From contig CAWAUR010000003.1 in NCBI GenBank assembly GCA_963785255.1, positions 443,057 through 507,056 on the forward strand: a DNA stretch of 64,000 nucleotides, read 5' to 3'. The notes under the pieces are model-generated. The model did not search any database. It was not told the origin of the DNA and saw only the letters and a list, made by a program, of their open reading frames with translations. How positions within the stretch are numbered: position 1 is the stretch's first letter; every line of letters begins with the position of its first letter. The position numbers and the translations under genes were made by a program. The DNA is from Bryobacterales bacterium (GTDB taxonomy: Bacteria; Acidobacteriota; Terriglobia; Bryobacterales; Bryobacteraceae). Shown piece by piece: positions 3,319 to 56,871 of this stretch.

Positions 3319-3520
3319 GTAGGACAGGCCTCCTGGCCTGTCCAGTAGGCGAGCGTTGCTCGCCAAAGGCGAGGGTTGCTCGCCAAAGAGCGGGCCTACG
3401 AGGCCCGCGCAGGCAGAGTGCCTGCCCCACAACGGCGGGCAGAATGTAGAAAGTCGAGAGGACGGGACTGCTGGCCTGTCCATCCGGCGTGGGGCAGGGT
3501 GCGGCAGTGCCTGCCCCACA
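3319..3520. repeat. Composite REP cluster in the divergent glcD/uxaC intergenic region
   Basis: Contains four palindromes in series: GTAGGACAGGCCTCCTGGCCTGTCC, two GGCGAGCGTTGCTCGCC-type hairpins, GCGGGCCTACGAGGCCCGC, and two GCCTGCCCCACA-type arms. Confidence 0.8.
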
Positions 3521-3554: not shown

Positions 3555-4952
3555 ATGCCCTTCATCACCCGCGATTTTCTGCTCAACAATCCGGCCGCCA
3601 GACGGCTGTATCATGACTTTGCCGAGCCGGAGCCCATCCTCGATTACCATTGCCATCTCCCGCCGCAAGATATCGCCGCGAACCGCCGGTTCGCCGATCT
3701 GGCCGCTATCTGGCTGGAGGGCGATCATTATAAGTGGCGCGCCATGCGGGCTAACGGCGTGGATGAGCGTTACTGCACGGGCGATGCGCCGCCATTCGAG
3801 AAGTTCCGCGCGTGGGCGGCCACCGTTCCTCAAACGTTGCGCAATCCTTTGTATCATTGGACGCATCTCGAACTGAAGCGCTACTTCGGCGTGGACGAGT
3901 TGCTGGATGAGGAGAGCGCTCCGCGCATCTGGGAACAGGCCAATGCGCTGCTGGCTACGCCGGACTTGCGCACGCATGGCATACTGGGCCGGTTTCGCGT
4001 GACGCACTTGTGCACCACGGACGATCCCACGGACGACCTAGCGTGCCATCGCGCGATTCAGGCGTCGGCCCTTGAAACCCGCGTATTCCCGGCTTTTCGT
4101 CCGGATAAGGCGCTGATGGTTCACCGGCCCGAACTCTTCAATCCGTGGGTGGAGCAGTTAGCGGCCGCGAGTGACGTAGATATCGGCTCACTCGACGATT
4201 TCACGGACGCATTGCTGCGCAGGCACGACGAGTTTCACGAATTAGGCGCGCGTCTGTCCGATCATGGGCTCAACCAGTGCTACGCGTCATTCTGCGCGGA
4301 TCGCGAAGCCGCCCGAGTGTTCGACCGGGCGCGCGCGGGGCACGCTGCCGGCGCGGACGAACAGGCTGCCTTTGCGTCCTTTATGATGCTCTTCTTTGGG
4401 CATTTGGACGCCGAAAAAGGTTGGACCAAGCAACTCCACTTAGGCGCTTATCGCAGCGCCAATACGCGGCGCCTCGGCGAAGTAGGTCCGGATTCGGGTT
4501 TCGATTCGATCGGCGATTGGCCGCAAGTGGCCTCGTTGGGCGCATATCTGGACCGCTTAGAGATGGAGAACGCGCTGCCGAAGATGATTATCTACAATGT
4601 CAACCCGATTGATAATTATGCGCTCGCGACCATGACCGGTAACTTCCAGGACGGTAAGATCGCCGGCAAGATACAATTCGGCAGCGGCTGGTGGTTTCTG
4701 GATCAAAAGGAAGGCATGGAATGGCAGATCAATGCGTTGTCGAATACGGGTTTGCTGTCGCGGTTCATCGGCATGCTGACCGATTCACGATCGTTCATGT
4801 CTTATCCGCGGCACGAGTATTTCCGGCGGGTGTTATGTAGCTTGATTGGGGAAGATATGGAACGGGGCTTGATTCCGGATAGCAATGAGTTAGTCGGACC
4901 GATGATCCGGAATATCTGTTACGGAAACGCGAAGGAGTATCTGGCGCTGTAG
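3555..4952 (+). CDS. uxaC: Glucuronate (uronate) isomerase
   Basis: 465 aa. MPFITRDFLLNN..LYHDFA...PILDYHCHLPPQDIA and ..KIQFGSGWWFLDQKEGM.. are classic UxaC motifs. Confidence 0.92.
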   Translation: MPFITRDFLLNNPAARRLYHDFAEPEPILDYHCHLPPQDIAANRRFADLAAIWLEGDHYKWRAMRANGVDERYCTGDAPPFEKFRAWAATVPQTLRNPLYHWTHLELKRYFGVDELLDEESAPRIWEQANALLATPDLRTHGILGRFRVTHLCTTDDPTDDLACHRAIQASALETRVFPAFRPDKALMVHRPELFNPWVEQLAAASDVDIGSLDDFTDALLRRHDEFHELGARLSDHGLNQCYASFCADREAARVFDRARAGHAAGADEQAAFASFMMLFFGHLDAEKGWTKQLHLGAYRSANTRRLGEVGPDSGFDSIGDWPQVASLGAYLDRLEMENALPKMIIYNVNPIDNYALATMTGNFQDGKIAGKIQFGSGWWFLDQKEGMEWQINALSNTGLLSRFIGMLTDSRSFMSYPRHEYFRRVLCSLIGEDMERGLIPDSNELVGPMIRNICYGNAKEYLAL

Positions 4953-5017
4953 GACAGGCCTCCCGGCCTGTCCAAGACGAGCGAAACTCGCCGAAGAGCG
5001 GGCCTACGAGGCCCGCG
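4949..5017. repeat. REP cluster; supplies the uxaC TAG stop and forms the 3' exon flank of the intron
   Basis: GTAGGACAGGCCTCCCGGCCTGTCC, then GCGAAACTCGCC, then GCGGGCCTACGAGGCCCGCG. The uxaC stop codon (4950-4952) is the TAG of the GTAG head. Confidence 0.8.
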
Positions 5018-6952
5018 GTCGCGGTAGGGATGCCGGTTGCCCGGCACCCCCCGCACAGATCCGTGCGAGCGCTCCTAACGCACACGGTTCTTACCTTGGA
5101 TGTGCTGCCACGCAAAGCGAACGTCAGGATACGGATGCAGAATTTCGACGTCCGGGATGAGGCACCCGAGTTTCTCCCAAAATTTGTTCCAGGTCCAGCG
5201 GGTTCTTTGACTCCGCCGCCGAAGCTGCCACCACCACATGCGTAGCACTTCGTGCCGGAACGCTTTCAGTCGTTCCTCGTTGCGCGGCACGGCGTGATAT
5301 CGGAAATATCCGCGAACCACCGATTGCAGCCACCCCGTCGTGTCCGGAACCCGCGCATGCAAGCGTTGGCGGAGCTGTTGCCGAATCTTCTTCAGCTTGG
5401 CGGCCATCCGTTTGCCGATCGTCTTCCGCAGCACCATGAAGTACCCCGTCGCGTGATTCTTCCCACAGATGTGAGTGAAACCCAAAAAGTTGAAGGTTTC
5501 CGGCTTCCCTTCCCCACGCTTCGCCCGCCGTTCAGCGGCATAGCGCCCAAATTCGATCAGGCGCGTCTTCTCCGGATGCAATTCCAGCCCGAACTTCCGC
5601 ACGCGTTCCCGCAATTGCGCCAGAAACTTTTCGGCCTCTTCCCGGTCCTGGAATCCGAACACCACGTCGTCCGCGTACCGCACCGCGATCATGTCGCCGT
5701 GCGCCACCTTCTTCCGCCATGCCTGCACCCACAGATCGAGCACGTAATGCAGGTAGAGATTGGCTAGCAACGGCGAAATCACCGCCCCTTGTGGGGTCCC
5801 TTCCTTCGTCTCGTACCACTGTCCGTCCTCCATCACGCCCGCCTTCAACCATTTCAGGATCAAGCGGACGAGCCGTTCATCTCCTATCCGATGCCGTACG
5901 AACTTTTCCATCTGAGCGTGTTCGACTTTGTCGAAAAACGACCGGATGTCTAAGTCCAGAACGTAGTTCACCTTCTTGCTGGTGATCCCGACGTAGAGCG
6001 CGTCTAGTGCGTCGTGCTGCTTGCGCCCCGGCCGGAACCCGTACGAAATGCCCAGAAAGTCCTCTTCCCAGATCGGATTGAGAACCGCGACCACCGCTGC
6101 CTGGGCGATTTTGTCTTCCAGGGCGGCGATGCCCAATGGCCGTTTCCGCCCATCGGCTTTGTCGATCCAGACTCTCCGCGACGGTTGCGCGCGATAGGCC
6201 CCGCGATGGATGCGTCCATGGAGGTCGGCGAGCCGCTCCTCCAGTTCGTCCCCGTAGGCTTGCCACGTCACCCCGTCCACTCCCGCCGCCGCTTGCCTTT
6301 GCAGGTCGTAGTAGCTGCTGCGGAGCAGGTCGATAGTGACGTGATGCAGCAGGGCGGTGAACCGCAACTGCTTGTCCTTCTGCGCTGCTTGACGTACACG
6401 GTCCAGCCCGCTTGGCCCGCTTTCCCGGCCTTGCATCCGGTACGGGTTAGGCTCTTCCGCATTCTCCTCGGTCAGCGGCCTTCCCTCCGCGATCTCCTTC
6501 GGCCCTCCCTGGCCTGCGTTCGACCGCTTCGTCGGTACTACGCCGCTGTGCGACTCCCCGCCGCCGTGCATCTGGGTCTTATCGCTCATCGCTTTCTCCC
6601 AGCGTTCCGCCCTCTACCGGCGGCGGAAAGCCACGGGGTCTCTCGGTTCTCGCGCGTGAAGTTTCTATGCGTGCGTGGGGTCTACGACTCCGCAGGGCCG
6701 CAACGTGCTCGCGCTGTTTACGCACGCTGCCGTGTTGCCTTCCGGTTAGCCTGACACCGTCGGCGCCCATGATTTTGGCAATTTCGGAGCTCATCAACTT
6801 CAGGGATACCCAGCCCACATATGCCCCAGGCCAACGCTTCAAGTGCGTCGTTGCCGCCGCCCTCACATGGCTCGGGGTCAGGATGGTTCGCTACTCCTTT
6901 CCTGTATGACTCTTTCATTCACTACTTCACGCCGGTTTATCCCGACGCTATC
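5018..6952 (-). mobile_element. Group II intron (about 1.9 kb, endonuclease-less RT/maturase) inserted in a composite REP
   Basis: Contains an RT/maturase ORF. The 3' end has a D5-like hairpin (GAACCGUGUGCG..CGCACGGAUC), a 3-nt linker, then a 14-bp D6-like stem with GCAA loop and a bulged A 8 nt from the ..GAC end. The flanks rejoin to match the intact REP at 49521-49575. The 5' end is not canonical (GAUAG at the junction; nearest GUGAA at 6930). Confidence 0.75.
5075..6589 (-). CDS. Group II intron reverse transcriptase/maturase
   Basis: ..RFTALLHHVT..AAAGVDGVTWQAY.., ISPLLANLYLH, YADDVVFGF (RT5) and FNFLGFTH (thumb/X). No HNH/En domain. The start is uncertain; an internal Met (MQGRESG) is possible. 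Confidence 0.9.
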   Translation of the reverse strand: MSDKTQMHGGGESHSGVVPTKRSNAGQGGPKEIAEGRPLTEENAEEPNPYRMQGRESGPSGLDRVRQAAQKDKQLRFTALLHHVTIDLLRSSYYDLQRQAAAGVDGVTWQAYGDELEERLADLHGRIHRGAYRAQPSRRVWIDKADGRKRPLGIAALEDKIAQAAVVAVLNPIWEEDFLGISYGFRPGRKQHDALDALYVGITSKKVNYVLDLDIRSFFDKVEHAQMEKFVRHRIGDERLVRLILKWLKAGVMEDGQWYETKEGTPQGAVISPLLANLYLHYVLDLWVQAWRKKVAHGDMIAVRYADDVVFGFQDREEAEKFLAQLRERVRKFGLELHPEKTRLIEFGRYAAERRAKRGEGKPETFNFLGFTHICGKNHATGYFMVLRKTIGKRMAAKLKKIRQQLRQRLHARVPDTTGWLQSVVRGYFRYHAVPRNEERLKAFRHEVLRMWWWQLRRRSQRTRWTWNKFWEKLGCLIPDVEILHPYPDVRFAWQHIQGKNRVR

Positions 6953-6975
6953 CAGGCTACGAGCCTGCCCCACAA

Positions 6976-13535: not shown

Positions 13536-13560
13536 GTAGGACAGGCCTCCGGGCCTGTCC
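13536..13560. repeat. REP element
   Basis: GTAGGACAGGCCTCCGGGCCTGTCC. Confidence 0.8.
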
Positions 13561-13706
13561 AGTTTTCGCGGTGACACCGCCCGGGGGAGTTGTCGCCCGC
13601 ACTTGGCGCTGCCAAAATTTTTCGCGAAAAGTTGAACCGCTGCGAGGTTGGAAATCACTATCGCACAAAAGGCGGTTTTTTTTCCGCGAACGAGAAAGGA
13701 TGTCGC

Positions 13707-15965: not shown

Positions 15966-16059
15966 GTAGGACAGGCCTCCTGGCCTGTCCAAGGCGAGCG
16001 AAGCTCGCCGCGCGCAGTTCGCCGAGGGCGAGCGGGACAGGCCAGGAGGCCTGTCCTAC
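15966..16059. repeat. Inverted REP pair flanking GGCGAGC..GCTCGCC hairpins
   Basis: GTAGGACAGGCCTCCTGGCCTGTCC ... GGGACAGGCCAGGAGGCCTGTCCTAC. The minus-strand TAG (16056-16058) is the recN stop codon. Confidence 0.8.
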
Positions 16060-17784: not shown

Positions 17785-17816
17785 GTGGGGCAGACCATCG
17801 TTTTTTGTGGTCTGCC
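17785..17816. repeat. GGCAGACCA..TGGTCTGCC palindromic repeat (second family)
   Basis: GTGGGGCAGACCATCGTTTTTTGTGGTCTGCC. Related copies at 46494-46537 and 56769-56850. Confidence 0.7.
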
Positions 17817-20147: not shown

Positions 20148-20678
20148 ATGAAGAAGAAAGAAGATAAAAAGAAGGACCTCGAAGCCCTGCGCCAGGATCT
20201 GCAGGCGTCCAAAAACCTGTTTGTGACGGGTTACGAGAAATTGCGCGTGGCGCAGGATTTCGAGCTGCGCAAAACCATTCGCGCCGCGGGCGGCAAGTAC
20301 CGCGTCATCAAGAACAACATCGCGCAGTTAGCCTCCCAAGGCACCCCCGCTGAAGACCTGATGAAGGATTTGCGCGGCATGACCTCGCTGGCCTACACCA
20401 CCAACGATCCGGTGGCGCTGGCCAAAGCCCTCACGGCCTATGCCAAGACGAATCCGGCGTTCACGTTCAAGGCGGGCCTGGTGGAAGGCCGCGTCATCGA
20501 CGTAAAGGCCATCGTGGATCTGGCGGCTATGCCGCCGAAGGAAGAAATCTTTGCCAAGCTGCTGTTCCTGATCAATTCTCCGGCGCAGCGGCTGGTATCG
20601 GCGCTGGGCGCGGTGGGCCGGAACGTGGCAGTGGTGCTCGATCAGGCGGCCAAGGAAGGCAAGTTTAAAGAAGTGTAG
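20148..20678 (+). CDS. rplJ: 50S ribosomal protein L10
   Basis: 176 aa. ..[39 protein letters not shown]... Position between rplA and rplL. The TAG stop lies in the REP head. Confidence 0.9.
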
Positions 20679-20725
20679 GACAGGCCTCCTGGCCTGTCCC
20701 GGACAGGCCGGGAGGCCTGTCCTAC
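20675..20725. repeat. Back-to-back inverted REP pair (BIME-like) in the rplJ-rplL spacer
   Basis: GTAGGACAGGCCTCCTGGCCTGTCC-C-GGACAGGCCGGGAGGCCTGTCCTAC. Confidence 0.85.
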
Positions 20726-20756
20726 CAGTTCTCAAAAGATAGGAGTCGTAAGGAAA

Positions 20757-48982: not shown

Positions 48983-49145
48983 GACAAGCCTCCTGGCTGT
49001 CCAGGGCGAGCGTTGCTCGCGTGGGGCGAGCGTTGCTCGCGTGGGGCGAGCGTTGCTCGCGTGGGGCGAGCGTTGCTCGCGTGGGGCGAGCGCTGCTCGC
49101 CTAAGAGCGGGCCTACGAGGCCCGCGCAGGCAGGGTGCCTGCCCC
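48979..49145. repeat. REP cluster including five tandem 20-bp hairpin units
   Basis: GTAGGACAAGCCTCCTGGCTGTCC, then five copies of (G)GGGCGAGCGTTGCTCGCGT (49001-49100), then GCGGGCCTACGAGGCCCGC, then GCAGGCAGGGTGCCTGCCCCACA. Confidence 0.85.
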
Positions 49146-49148
49146 ACA

Positions 49149-49520: not shown

Positions 49521-49611
49521 TGTGGGGCAGGCTCGTAGCCTGCGCGGGCCTCGTAGGCCCGCTCTTTTGGCGCGTTGGCGCGCCGTGGACAGGCCGGGAG
49601 GCCTGTCCTAC
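49521..49611. repeat. Composite REP cluster (intact reference copy for the intron target)
   Basis: TGTGGGGCAGGCTCGTAGCCTGCGCGGGCCTCGTAGGCCCGCTCTTTTGGCG ... GGACAGGCCGGGAGGCCTGTCCTAC. Confidence 0.85.
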
Positions 49612-50192
49612 CCAGTCATGTTCCACTGGGAGATGACGCGCGTATCGCGCTCGTAACCCAGCACGCTCAGCGACGCCGTCGAAAGCGCGAAGAACCTGCC
49701 GGCATCCGGCGCAAGGCCCAGCCAGCAGGCCGTCAGTATCCGCAGCAGGTGCCCGTGCGCGAACAGGGCTACGTCGCCGCCCTCGCCGGCCGCACGCCGA
49801 ATCACGCGCTTCGCCCGCGCGGCCACCCGCTCGATGGTTTCACCCCCCGGCACCGGCGAGGTCCAGATGGTCCAGTCTGGGACAAGCTTCTGAATCTCGG
49901 CGCTGGTGTGGCCTTCATACGCTCCGTAATCCCATTCCTGCAGGTCCGGCTCGTCTTGCGCCACGTCGCCATAGCCCGCCAGGCGGCACGTGTCGCGGGC
50001 GCGCGCGAGCGGGCTGGTCAGCACCAGGGCAAAGCGGCGCCCCGCCAGCCTACGTCCGATATCTTCGGCGTGCCGCCGGCCGGCGTCCGTAAGCGGGAGA
50101 TCGGTGCGGCCCGTGTGTTGCCCCGAGAGGCTCCACGCGGTCTCACCGTGACGAATCAGCCAAATTTCCGGATGGGAATTGTTTTCGGGCAT
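49608..50192 (-). CDS. Histidine phosphatase family protein (phosphoglycerate mutase-like)
   Basis: ..EIWLIRHGETAWS..G.HTGRTD.PLTD.G...A..+G..L......+VLTSPL.RA..T.., ..LFAHGH.LR. RHG catalytic motif. The TAG stop lies in the REP. Confidence 0.85.
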   Translation of the reverse strand: MPENNSHPEIWLIRHGETAWSLSGQHTGRTDLPLTDAGRRHAEDIGRRLAGRRFALVLTSPLARARDTCRLAGYGDVAQDEPDLQEWDYGAYEGHTSAEIQKLVPDWTIWTSPVPGGETIERVAARAKRVIRRAAGEGGDVALFAHGHLLRILTACWLGLAPDAGRFFALSTASLSVLGYERDTRVISQWNMTG

Positions 50193-50286
50193 GCTAATGA
50201 TAAAGCATACCCGATGGAGAGAGGATAGGGAACGCGCCCGTTGCCCCGGCGTAGCTCAGTCGCTCCGCGCAGCCAGGGCGTATGGT

Positions 50287-53769: not shown

Positions 53770-53983
53770 CAGCCCGGCAGGTTTCGCGAGCGCGTTCGAG
53801 CGGACTGGTCAGTACTAAGGCGAAGCGGCGTCGAGCCAGTCTACGCCCGATTTCCTGGGCGTGGCGGCGGCCGGCATCCGTGAGCGGAATATCGGTGCGT
53901 CCAGTGTGCTGCCCGGTCACAGTCCACGCTGTCTCGCCGTGACGGATCAGCCAAATTTCCGGTTGGGAATTATTATCGGGCAT
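53770..53983 (-). pseudogene. Truncated paralogue of the histidine phosphatase gene (first ~72 codons only)
   Basis: MPDNNSQPEIWLIRHGETAWTVTGQHTGRTDIPLTDAGRRHAQEIGRRLARRRFALVLTSPLERARETCR, then unrelated sequence. Colinear with 49980-50192. Confidence 0.7.
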
Positions 53984-54025
53984 GCTAATGATAAAGCATA
54001 CCCGATGGAGGGAGAATAGGGAAAC

Positions 54026-55675: not shown

Positions 55676-55680
55676 TCCGT

Positions 55681-55796
55681 GTGGGGCAGGCACTCTGCCT
55701 GCGCGGGCCTCGTAGGCCCGCTCTTTCGGCGCGCGAAGTGCAGCGCTGCGCCGCAGGCGGCCTGAGAGGCCGCCGCAGGCAGGGTGCCTGCCCCAC
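55681..55796. repeat. Composite REP cluster between convergent pgm and gspK
   Basis: GTGGGGCAGGCACTCTGCCTGCGCGGGCCTCGTAGGCCCGCTCTTTCGGCG ... GCAGGCGGCCTGAGAGGCCGCCGCAGGCAGGGTGCCTGCCCCAC. Confidence 0.85.
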
Positions 55797-55797
55797 T

Positions 55798-56871
55798 CTA
55801 AAGCGCCCAGTCGTACCAGCGGAGAATGTGGTACGAGGTAATATCTTGTCCGGGCTGGAGAAACTTCACCTGCGCGCCCACGCTGCGGCGCAGATCCGAT
55901 AACTGGCCGTTGGCGAGGCGCAGGCGCGCGGTGGAGCGCAGCGTGAAAACAGTAATCCCACCGACACGCAGGCGGGAGAAGCCATCGCCCGCGATTTGCG
56001 TGAACGGCGCCAGATCGGCCTGTGTCGCAAAGGGCTGGCCGCGGCGGTGCTGGACGAGGGCGGCCACTCCTTCGGGTGGAACTCCGGCGGCAGCCAAGAC
56101 GGCCGGCGGCGCGGTGTTCACGTCGAACTGGGAGACGGTGCCGTAGACGGAAAGGCAATCGCGCAGGCCGGTGCGTGGCGCGATTTGCCGCGCGGGGCCT
56201 TCGCCCATTGCCTGCCAGTCGCCGTAATAAAGATCCGGCGTGACGCCCTTTACGGAAAGTAACTCCTCGATTTCCTGGAAGCGCGCATGCGGCGCGACAT
56301 ACGGCGGACGGAGCGACGCGTAGAACTCGTCGAACGCGCTGCCCGATGGCGGCGGAGGTGGCTCGCGCCAGTCGACGATCGCCGCGGCGATCTCCTGCGC
56401 ACGCGCTGGGCCGACGCCGAGGTTTAGGACCAGGCGGAATAGTTCATCGGGCAAGGCGCGATTGATATTGAATTTGGCGGTTTCCGGAACGACATCGACT
56501 ATGGTTTGGCCTTCAGGAAAATCCAAGATGAAGAAGGGCTGGGGTGGTTTGAAACGCGGGATATCGGGATGGGTGCGGCCCCAATCCATGTAGAGGATGG
56601 CGCGACGCAAGCCGCCGATGGCCAGATCCTGGGCGCGGAGTCCATCGACCGCTGTGGCGCTGCGTTCGGCTTCGCCGCGCACGGTATCGGCGAGCGAAAA
56701 GGCGATGGCGCCGAGAGCCGCGGAGAGCCACAGCACGGCCAGGAGCGCCGTTCCGCGAACTGACTGTTTGTGGGGCAGACCATCGTTCTTTGTGGTCTGC
56801 CGCGATGCCGCGGCAGAAGGCAGACGACGAAAAGCGATCGTCTGCCCCACGTTATTGAAAGAGGTCCGCAT
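55798..56871 (-). CDS. gspK: Type II secretion system minor pseudopilin GspK-like
   Basis: ..RGTALLAVLWLSAALGAIAFSLADTVRGEAERSA...D.LRA..LA.GG+..A.. and C-terminal helix-hairpin-helix-like ..LLSVKGVTPDLY... The N-terminal ~30 codons read through a palindromic repeat, so the start is uncertain. Confidence 0.7.
   Translation of the reverse strand: MRTSFNNVGQTIAFRRLPSAAASRQTTKNDGLPHKQSVRGTALLAVLWLSAALGAIAFSLADTVRGEAERSATAVDGLRAQDLAIGGLRRAILYMDWGRTHPDIPRFKPPQPFFILDFPEGQTIVDVVPETAKFNINRALPDELFRLVLNLGVGPARAQEIAAAIVDWREPPPPPSGSAFDEFYASLRPPYVAPHARFQEIEELLSVKGVTPDLYYGDWQAMGEGPARQIAPRTGLRDCLSVYGTVSQFDVNTAPPAVLAAAGVPPEGVAALVQHRRGQPFATQADLAPFTQIAGDGFSRLRVGGITVFTLRSTARLRLANGQLSDLRRSVGAQVKFLQPGQDITSYHILRWYDWAL
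56769..56850. repeat. Double GGCAGAC..GTCTGCC palindromic repeat inside the gspJ/gspK junction
   Basis: TGTGGGGCAGACCATCGTTCTTTGTGGTCTGCC..GGCAGACGACGAAAAGCGATCGTCTGCCCCAC. Confidence 0.75.

Follow-up and report, generated by a model that had tools for sequence, protein, structure and literature searches.

A high-copy group II intron lineage associated with REP hairpins and an atypical 5' end in a Bryobacterales genome

The window, as we call the whole stretch of DNA analyzed here, comprises 64,000 nucleotides (nt) from a Bryobacterales bacterium (assembly GCA_963785255.1, contig CAWAUR010000003.1, positions 443,057 to 507,056). A 1935-nt group II intron occupies positions 5018-6952 on the minus strand and lies at the A/B junction of a composite repetitive extragenic palindrome (REP). 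The element is located 3 nt past the stop codon of a major facilitator superfamily (MFS) transporter gene in the same orientation and is convergent to a glucuronate isomerase gene. Given this placement between the two genes, no coding sequence is interrupted, and read-through transcription is possible. The minus strand carries, in order, ...TGA-TTGTGGGGCAGGCTCGTAGCCTG as an exon, the intron GATAGCGTCGGG ... CCCTACCGCGAC and the exon CGCGGGCCTCGTAGGCCCGCTCTT. The 5' flank (6974-6953) reads TGTGGGGCAGGCTCGTAGCCTG, and the 3' flank (5017-4989) reads CGCGGGCCTCGTAGGCCCGCTCTTCGGCG. When joined, the two flanks are identical to the uninterrupted sequence at 49521-49566 in 46 of 46 positions (22 + 24). 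The junction ..GCCTG/CGCGGGCC.. is also intact at 3390-3431(-), 49107-49148(-) and 55680-55721(+), and the 64-kb window thus contains four uninterrupted copies of the composite REP. After ..CCTG, the empty sites continue with C and the filled site with G, so that the insertion boundaries carry no positional ambiguity. The 5' junction of the intron is G/GAUAGCG.

In addition to the comparison with empty paralogous sites, three further lines of evidence delimit the same unit. First, 34 full copies and ~85 5' ends at other loci share its ends. Second, head-to-tail junctions at two metagenome loci (L093 and L104) separate one unit from the next at the same positions. Third, high-depth unitigs in DNA metagenomes stop at 5017 and 6957. 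The coordinates of the intron and its parts are collected in Table 1.

Table 1. Features of the intron, its flanking REP sequences and its empty-site model in the window
Feature	Positions	Strand	Description	Evidence
Group II intron	5018..6952	-	1935 nt, 5'-GAUAGCG ... CCCUACCGCGAC-3'	Empty paralogous sites, shared ends, head-to-tail junctions, unitig limits
5' exon, REP-A	6953..6974	-	GUGGGGC head and hairpin CAGGCU-CGU-AGCCUG	
Intron-binding site 1 (IBS1), AGCCUG	6953-6958	-	Last six 5'-exon bases, 3' arm of the REP-A hairpin	
3' exon, REP-B	4989..5017	-	Hairpin GCGGGCCUCGUAGGCCCGC at 4998-5016; +1 is C (5017), presumed IBS3	
Local 7-bp hairpin after the 5' end	6929..6948	-	GCGUCGG-GAUAAA-CCGGCGU; also in relatives starting with GUGCG	
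Conserved part of domain 1	6678..6913	-		Rfam RF02005 match
UUGCC pentamer	6777..6781	-		GCC core covaries with the EBS1 core
Exon-binding site 1 (EBS1), CAGGCU	6748..6753	-	Intron nt 200-205, terminal loop of hairpin 6738-6765	Covaries with target -1 to -6
Three covarying helical domains	6396..6642	-	Intron nt 311-401, 405-480 and 491-557	
Intron-encoded reverse transcriptase (RT)/maturase	5075..6589	-	504 aa, YADD present, no DNA-binding/endonuclease (D/En) domain	
Domain 5	5057..5091	-	AAC replaces the AGC triad, A.A opposition	13 pairs, several compensatory
Domain 6	5020..5055	-	15-bp stem, GCAA loop, bulged UA, presumed branch-point A at 5025	
Uninterrupted paralogous composite REP, empty-site model	49521..49572	+		

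The identity of the element is established by both its RNA and its protein. The Rfam model RF02005 (group-II-D1D4-6) matches 6913-6678(-) with 159 bits (E 6e-46). In a permissive search, the domain 5/domain 6 (D5/D6) model RF00029 matches 5092-5018(-) over its full length and ends exactly at 5018, with a score of 30.5 bits (E 0.0016) that falls below the gathering score of 40 bits. The open reading frame (ORF) at 6589-5075(-) scores 348 bits against the NCBIfam equivalog TIGR04416 for group II RT/maturases (cut-off 300), and RVT_1 is its only Pfam domain, with no nuclease domain. The ORF stops 45 residues past the maturase region and therefore lacks a D/En domain. Its similarity to structurally solved RTs is comparable across classes: 146 bits to the chloroplast-like T.el4h, 137 bits to GsI-IIC and 125 bits to LtrA. 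The 504-aa frame is intact and 99% identical to a metagenomic cluster. More than 8000 proteins belong to the family at E below 1e-50; the best 120 are all at least 78% identical and reside mostly on ~2-kb contigs that break at the repeat. NCBI-sourced homologues of the protein come from metagenome contigs only, and a plasmid search at the DNA level yields only 5 weak matches.

A sequence-only reading of the window had described an intron with an endonuclease-less (En-less) RT/maturase ORF inside a composite REP, had rebuilt the empty site from a paralogue and had placed the boundaries at the nucleotide level. The 46-base match, the Rfam matches and the protein assignment bear this description out, and identical intron ends recur at more than 80 loci with unrelated flanks.

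Can the sequence between these boundaries fold as a group II ribozyme? A covarying domain 1 (D1), three middle domains, D5 and D6 can all be built on 5018-6952. The consensus fold of 44 5' regions contains 67 pairs, and compensatory changes support 21 of these; the fold is consistent with that of the Rfam model. The local hairpin directly after the 5' end shows only one-sided changes (U.G to C-G and G.U to A-U), which lend it weak support. The three middle domains comprise 68 predicted pairs, of which 43 are compensatory, and are retained in derivatives that have lost the ORF; they would correspond to D2, D3 and the base of D4. In the consensus fold of D5 and D6 from 31 copies, 28 pairs form, including 11 that are compensatory; the D5 hairpin, of the expected type of about 34 nt with a 2-nt bulge, is supported, and the distal stem of D6 covaries in up to 8 sequences per pair. 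The D6 proposed in the sequence-only reading retains its GCAA loop and its bulged A, 8 nt from a 3' end that reads ..GAC (AY), and only its 14-bp stem needs revision, to 15 bp.

The ORF overlaps this RNA architecture to an unusual extent. Of 52 copies, 47 have ATG, GTG or TTG as the first codon, the frame is open, and a GGGAG Shine-Dalgarno sequence precedes the start. The start lies unusually far upstream, in the first middle helical domain, and the frame runs through all three domains. The first ~65 RT codons (6364-6589, minus strand) overlap the three covarying helices and are under a dual coding and structural constraint. The AUG at intron nt 517 was considered as the true protein start and rejected, because most copies have ACA or ACG in its place, and it is the start at nt 364 that is conserved. 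The start codon and the Shine-Dalgarno sequence are enclosed in a small covarying hairpin. In Ll.LtrB, the protein-binding hairpin D4a likewise encloses the start codon and the ribosome-binding site, and this analogy suggests that translation of the maturase may be autoregulated.

The intron is not confined to the window. A protein-guided scan of species-representative genomes detects 4 loci, in metagenome-assembled genomes of Bryobacterales/Terriglobia, and a 20-nt pattern from the intron 5' end retrieves 120 metagenome loci from soils, peat and wetlands. Two lineages are found among the metagenome loci. The lineage of the window intron accounts for ~85 non-redundant sites and begins with GAUAGCGUC in 70 non-redundant copies, with GAUGCG, GUUAGCG and GAAGCG as minor forms. 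The sister lineage (21 sites) begins with the canonical GUGCGCC. All 34 complete copies end with ..CCCUACCGCGAC (..CGCGAC), and the flanks beyond are unrelated except for position +1, which is C in 31 of the 34 (27 of 30 when redundancy is removed). Four soil DNA metagenomes contain the exact locus; in these, the depth over the intron is 25-35 times that of the unique flanks, with zero mismatches, which indicates about 30 identical copies per genome. Examples of the depths are 406-422 versus 13-16 (metagenome X8) and 300-331 versus 9-10 (X11). Beyond the intron, the sequence common to the high-depth copies is limited to position +1 downstream and positions -1 to -5 upstream, which independently confirms the boundaries. 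Judged from these sequences, the intron appears to have been active and mobile recently.

Ten independent derivatives of 551-878 nt lack the ORF and keep nt 1-490/580 together with the last ~85 nt, that is, the part of the intron RNA that folds. Three of these mini-introns measure 702 nt (L027, L034 and L062), and the others measure 677 (L039), 670 (L045), 662 (L085), 655 (L096), 672 (L109), 878 (L048) and 551 nt (L095). Their ends are intact, their EBS1 fits their own 5' flank and their deletion end points are independent; they look like non-autonomous derivatives mobilized in trans. Other copies are rearranged. At L093:~800-860 and L104:~860-900, the intron 3' end (..CCCUACCGCGAA/C) directly abuts an intron 5' end, and EBS1 of L104 does not fit its head-to-tail 'target', so that a tandem duplication or an integrated circular form seems likelier than ordinary homing. 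A degenerate copy at L004:2600-2680 has a fragmented RT gene and an in-place inversion of intron nt ~14-65.

The sister lineage (L005, L017, L031, L033, L035, L043, L058, L061, L080, L097, L116 and others) resides at one conserved site, ..GAGUUUUGGACCCCAGUUGGA/GUGCG, inside a ~100-nt conserved element that adjoins the ends of various tRNA genes. This element is probably the end of an integrative element, and the sister lineage would be a classical site-specific homing intron.

The target of the window intron is specified primarily by base pairing. The D1 hairpin at 6738-6765 carries the loop GU-CAGGCU-AA, in which CAGGCU is the exact complement of AGCCUG at the end of the 5' exon. In 39 non-redundant target/loop combinations, on average 5.38 of the 6 positions are paired; when the loops were shuffled among the targets in 10,000 trials, the mean was 4.39 and the maximum was 4.90, and none of the trials reached the observed value. 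A blind mutual-information scan of all intron columns against all target positions ranks -3/202, -6/205 and -5/204 as its top three pairs. Target and loop change together as GCGUG/CACGC, GCUUG/CAAGC, GUCGUG/CACGAC, GGGCUG/CAGCCC and GAUCUG/CAGAUC. In the sister lineage, the same loop (UCCAAC) pairs in the same register with GUUGGA directly upstream of GUGCG. The register of this covariation places the 5' junction immediately before G6952.

A second guide is less evident. Canonical EBS2-IBS2 pairing at a fixed distance was not found in the copy alignment, where the best fixed offsets pair 2.0-2.3 of 5 positions. The UUGCC pentamer upstream of EBS1 pairs weakly with the target at every fixed offset, and its GCC core pairs with the EBS1 core at 2.50 of 3 positions, compared with a permutation mean of 2.14 (0 of 10,000 trials reach the observed value). 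Two roles are conceivable for the pentamer: masking of EBS1 within the intron, or recognition of the hairpin's 5' arm as an EBS2 of loose position. Two other EBS2 candidates were rejected. CCCCAC (intron nt ~275), complementary to the GUGGGG head, is unchanged in copies with GUGGCGC targets and pairs internally with GGCUGGG. The purine-rich segment AUGGGC, suggested by its match to loop sequences, belongs to an internal helix of the Rfam consensus.

The paired target is itself structured. The sequence-only reading had proposed that the intron homes to, or tolerates, REP DNA, and this association extends to the family: of 83 non-redundant sites, 67 carry a perfect hairpin (5 bp or more) whose 3' foot is at -1 and whose 3' arm is made up of the last five or six exon bases, compared with 10% of shuffled flanks. 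The target hairpin is preceded by GUGG(G/C)GC, all sites have one orientation relative to this head, and the 3' flank often starts with another hairpin. Given the hairpins on both sides, the intron sits between two palindromes of a composite that resembles a bacterial interspersed mosaic element (BIME). Moreover, with IBS1 forming one arm of the stem, EBS1 is identical in sequence to the other arm and has to take its place.

Is the hairpin recognized as a structure, or is the link with REPs incidental? If the intron simply reads a ~6-nt IBS1 and C at +1, REPs would be merely the most abundant carriers of such sites, and the stem-loop would be irrelevant. The copies L052 and L103 (EBS1 CACGAC, target GUCGUG) and L015 occupy sites that fit EBS1 and have no hairpin, and IBS1 within a stem requires the hairpin to open for pairing. 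No covarying contact with the loop or the 5' arm is found at a fixed offset. The hairpin-free sites of L052 and L103 indeed identify base pairing as the primary target determinant. However, a purely incidental link does not account for a hairpin foot positioned exactly at -1 in so many sites, or for the single orientation at a target whose other strand, in a perfect palindrome, presents an identical IBS1 and +1 C. The constant orientation relative to the GUGGGGC head implies that a further determinant, either the structure or possibly the protein, contributes. We regard the incidental explanation as credible but on balance doubtful, and we favor a lineage specialized on REP-type hairpins, in which the hairpin may be recognized as a structure as well.

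The most unusual features of the intron are its 5' end and its D5 triad. A GUGYG 5' end and an AGC triad (AGC or CGC at the D5 base) are supposedly near-invariant signatures of the group II core, and the AGC triad is common to group II introns and spliceosomal U6. GUGYG is absent from the window intron, which begins with GAUAGCG and has its nearest GUGAA at 6930, both as given in the sequence-only reading. That reading left two alternatives, an atypical 5' end or ~23 nt of foreign 5'-exon sequence carried along with the intron. The GUGCG of the sister lineage aligns to intron positions 1-7 (G-AUA-GCG versus G-U-GCG), and the lineage of the window intron accordingly has two extra 5' nt, with the GUGAA at 6930 representing ordinary internal D1 sequence. 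The same 22 'odd' 5' nt open ~85 non-redundant copies in other genomes and in metagenomes from soil. They belong to the intron, whose 5' end is truly atypical; the foreign-exon alternative is contradicted by the EBS1 register, the GUGCG alignment and a surplus of only 2 nt.

A true 5' splice site at the GUGAA of 6930, with the upstream 22 nt as a co-mobilized exon, would explain why the inserted unit does not begin with GU, and GUGAAG does resemble GUGYG. Nevertheless, we consider this location highly improbable. The six bases that covary with EBS1 lie directly before G6952 rather than before 6930, and in relatives with a GUGCG start the downstream GUGAAG/GGAGGA segment remains internal sequence. 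Only 17 nt would be left between GUGAA and the conserved AGAGUC of D1. Furthermore, reverse splicing inserts exactly the excised RNA, and the 22 nt are present in all copies.

The 5' end deviates together with D5. All copies that do not start with GUGCG have GAACCG at the D5 base (AAC opposite A), whereas all GUGCG copies and the proteobacterial relatives have GAGCCG, which contains the AGC triad. The two deviations co-occur without exception, but the pattern goes back to one split between two clades and thus represents a single evolutionary event.

These deviations raise the question of whether this copy, or the whole GAUAG/AAC lineage, can splice at all or instead spreads by other means or represents a decaying relic. 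The non-canonical 5' end, the A at the central position of the D5 triad, a D5 loop that is not GNRA, the sub-threshold RF00029 score and the truncated or rearranged copies (L003, L004 and L111) would all fit a loss of splicing. The same lineage nonetheless maintains ~30 identical copies per genome and an intact RT/maturase ORF almost unchanged in a metagenomic cluster. From one genome to another, its EBS1 is fitted to different REP stems, an adaptation that presupposes repeated RNA-guided insertion, and its ends have the single-nucleotide precision typical of reverse splicing. A lineage unable to splice is therefore unlikely.

The intron family is transcribed. Family contigs occur in metatranscriptomes from wetland, peat, permafrost and soil, with the highest depth over D1. 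RNA contigs also contain joints of 5017 to 6953, with ~21 nt on the shorter side, and such joints are equally present in DNA runs. The short-sided joints are for this reason attributed to uninterrupted paralogous REPs rather than to spliced exons.

Structurally, the element is a group II intron in every respect tested, and it departs from the definition only in two sequence signatures, GUGYG and AGC. We conclude that it is very probably an autonomous En-less bacterial group II intron retroelement whose lineage is specialized on REP-type hairpins. As a more tentative proposal, for which doubt and belief are nearly balanced, this very abundant lineage of soil Acidobacteriota has remained fully mobile despite the loss of the GUGYG 5' end and the central G of D5 and has been converted from site-specific homing to the use of a guide loop that tracks REP stems. 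Several observations weigh against the main conclusion of a REP-specialized retroelement. The 5017-to-6953 joints in RNA probably represent uninterrupted paralogous REPs and not spliced exons. The non-GUGYG 5' end, the AAC triad and the sub-threshold RF00029 score could each mean impaired catalysis. The hairpin-free sites of L052, L103 and L015 show that structure is not strictly required, and the model does not account for the strand preference on a palindromic target.

A working cycle can be proposed for the intron. Read-through from the upstream MFS transporter gene would transcribe the element, and the intron-encoded RT/maturase would help the intron RNA fold. The 6-bp EBS1-IBS1 helix between the CAGGCU loop and the AGCCUG 3' arm of the REP would set the 5' junction, the +1 C would set the 3' junction, and the bulged A of D6 would serve as the branch point for splicing. 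The excised RNA-protein particle would then reverse-splice into DNA sites of the type ..GCCUG^C, which REPs supply abundantly. Because an endonuclease is absent, nascent strands at replication forks would prime cDNA synthesis to complete retrohoming.

This interpretation is of interest in several respects. The lineage provides a natural, much-replicated example of an RNA guide (EBS1) that co-evolves with a host repeat family, and such co-evolution explains how an En-less retroelement reaches ~30 identical copies per genome without gene disruption. It also indicates that hairpin-associated targeting is not peculiar to class C introns and can follow a different logic, in which the guide pairs with the arm of the stem itself. 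For specialists, the greater interest may lie in the paired GAUAG/AAC deviation in an evidently active lineage: a non-GUGYG 5' end and a non-AGC D5 triad that coexist with signs of recent mobility provide a test of how strict the core motifs are, and, if the tentative proposal is true, the altered 5' end and the altered triad are a natural compensatory pair in the active site. In practical terms, annotation pipelines that seek GUGYG would set the 5' boundary wrongly for thousands of these introns in soil metagenomes.

The window is rich in repeats related to the insertion site. REP-B occurs 5 times, compared with 0.05 expected by chance, and five A/B composites are accompanied by several other palindrome families, which are short, GC-rich, intergenic and often paired (REP/BIME-like). 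A tandem array at 49004-49103 (also 3347-3386) consists of five 20-nt units (GGGCGAGCGTTGCTCGCGTG), each a small palindrome, and adjoins a composite REP. A second REP family with a GTAG tag (GTAGGACAGGCCTCCTGGCCTGTCC) has at least 10 copies between 1775 and 58497, for example at 3319-3348, 4949-4978, 13536-13565, 15966-15995 and 20675-20726. One metagenome intron (L083) is located inside the 3' arm of a GTAG-tag REP and has a matching EBS1 (CAGGCC). A third palindrome type at 17785-17816 and 56770-56801 shares the GTGGGGCAG head (GTGGGGCAGACCATCGTTTTTTGTGGTCTGCC), and its copies are 97% identical. A 249-nt direct repeat (49984-50232 and 53775-54023; 84% identity, 3.8 kb apart) probably reflects paralogous genes.

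How does the intron compare with known systems? In a partial survey of the literature, with the Zimmerly database outside the comparison, no description was found of an intron lineage whose EBS1 tracks REP stems. On group II introns that target REPs, the survey found only a count for Pseudomonas putida KT2440, in which 2 of 9 group II intron copies lie in REPs (PMC1525189). Relatives with the same D1 model (187-189 bits) are the proteobacterial En-less RF02005 introns from Pseudomonas, Burkholderia, Ralstonia and Cupriavidus plasmids (L125-L127), whose proteins are 58% identical. These introns share the hairpin after the 5' end, D6 and the 3' end ..CCCUACCGCGAC with the window intron but start with GUGCG (GAGCG in one), have the AGC triad and, in the three examined, are not preceded by a REP hairpin. 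A plausible named relative is So.us.I2 of Solibacter usitatus (CP000473:3231872-3233814), which is described as a class F intron (Zimmerly database) of 1943 nt with an RT-X protein without En, at a non-coding site (Toro and Martinez-Abarca 2013, PMC3552965). Compared by that description only, the two introns share an acidobacterial host order, a similar length (1943 versus 1935 nt), the absence of En and a non-coding location.

The sequence-only reading likened the intron to terminator-targeting introns, and the likeness is partial. Class IIC introns such as B.h.I1 insert after terminator stem-loops or attC, using an IBS1 of 3-4 nt past the stem and a proposed non-pairing contact with the stem-loop (PMC1702495). 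Like these introns, the window intron encodes an En-less protein, occupies intergenic 'safe' sites on the 3' side of a stem-loop, has no convincing EBS2-IBS2 pairing and reads the 3' exon via the single +1 base. The hairpin-flanked site is thus common to both, but the mode of recognition is not: IBS1 here comprises 6 nt and coincides with the 3' arm of the stem, rather than being a short sequence downstream, and does not fit the IIC definition. Comparison with RTs of known structure does not bring the encoded protein nearer to class IIC than to the chloroplast-like or mitochondrial-like enzymes, and the 5' end and the D5 triad also differ.

Displaced 5' splice sites have precedents. In C.te.I1 of Clostridium tetani, the 5' splice site lies 8 nt upstream of GUGYG (PMC4024640), and in fungal rRNA IIB1 introns it lies 1-33 nt upstream (reviewed in PMC4424553). 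In these introns, as in the window intron, EBS1-IBS1 pairing sets a 5' junction upstream of the GUGYG position. However, they keep GUGYG internally and reside in genes, whereas the window intron has a degenerated motif (UAGCG) with a 2-nt shift and is a high-copy mobile retroelement.

The lifestyle of the intron recalls two further systems. RmInt1, an En-less class D intron, uses a 7-nt EBS1, EBS3 (+1) and a 5-nt EBS2-IBS2 pairing at -9 to -13 (PMC4075523). The window intron resembles RmInt1 in its presumed En-less mode of retrohoming, its EBS1 and +1 contacts and its many copies in a repeated target, which for RmInt1 is an insertion sequence (IS) element. RmInt1 needs EBS2-IBS2 and has a unique-sequence target, whereas the target of the window intron is a hairpin for which no such pairing was detected. 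The elements IS1397, ISPpu9/ISPpu10 and ISPsy8 target REPs (PMC1525189) and, like the window intron, exploit them as abundant neutral landing sites. These elements are DNA transposons that recognize REPs through a transposase; in the window intron, this role belongs to an RNA guide loop that co-evolves with the REP stem.

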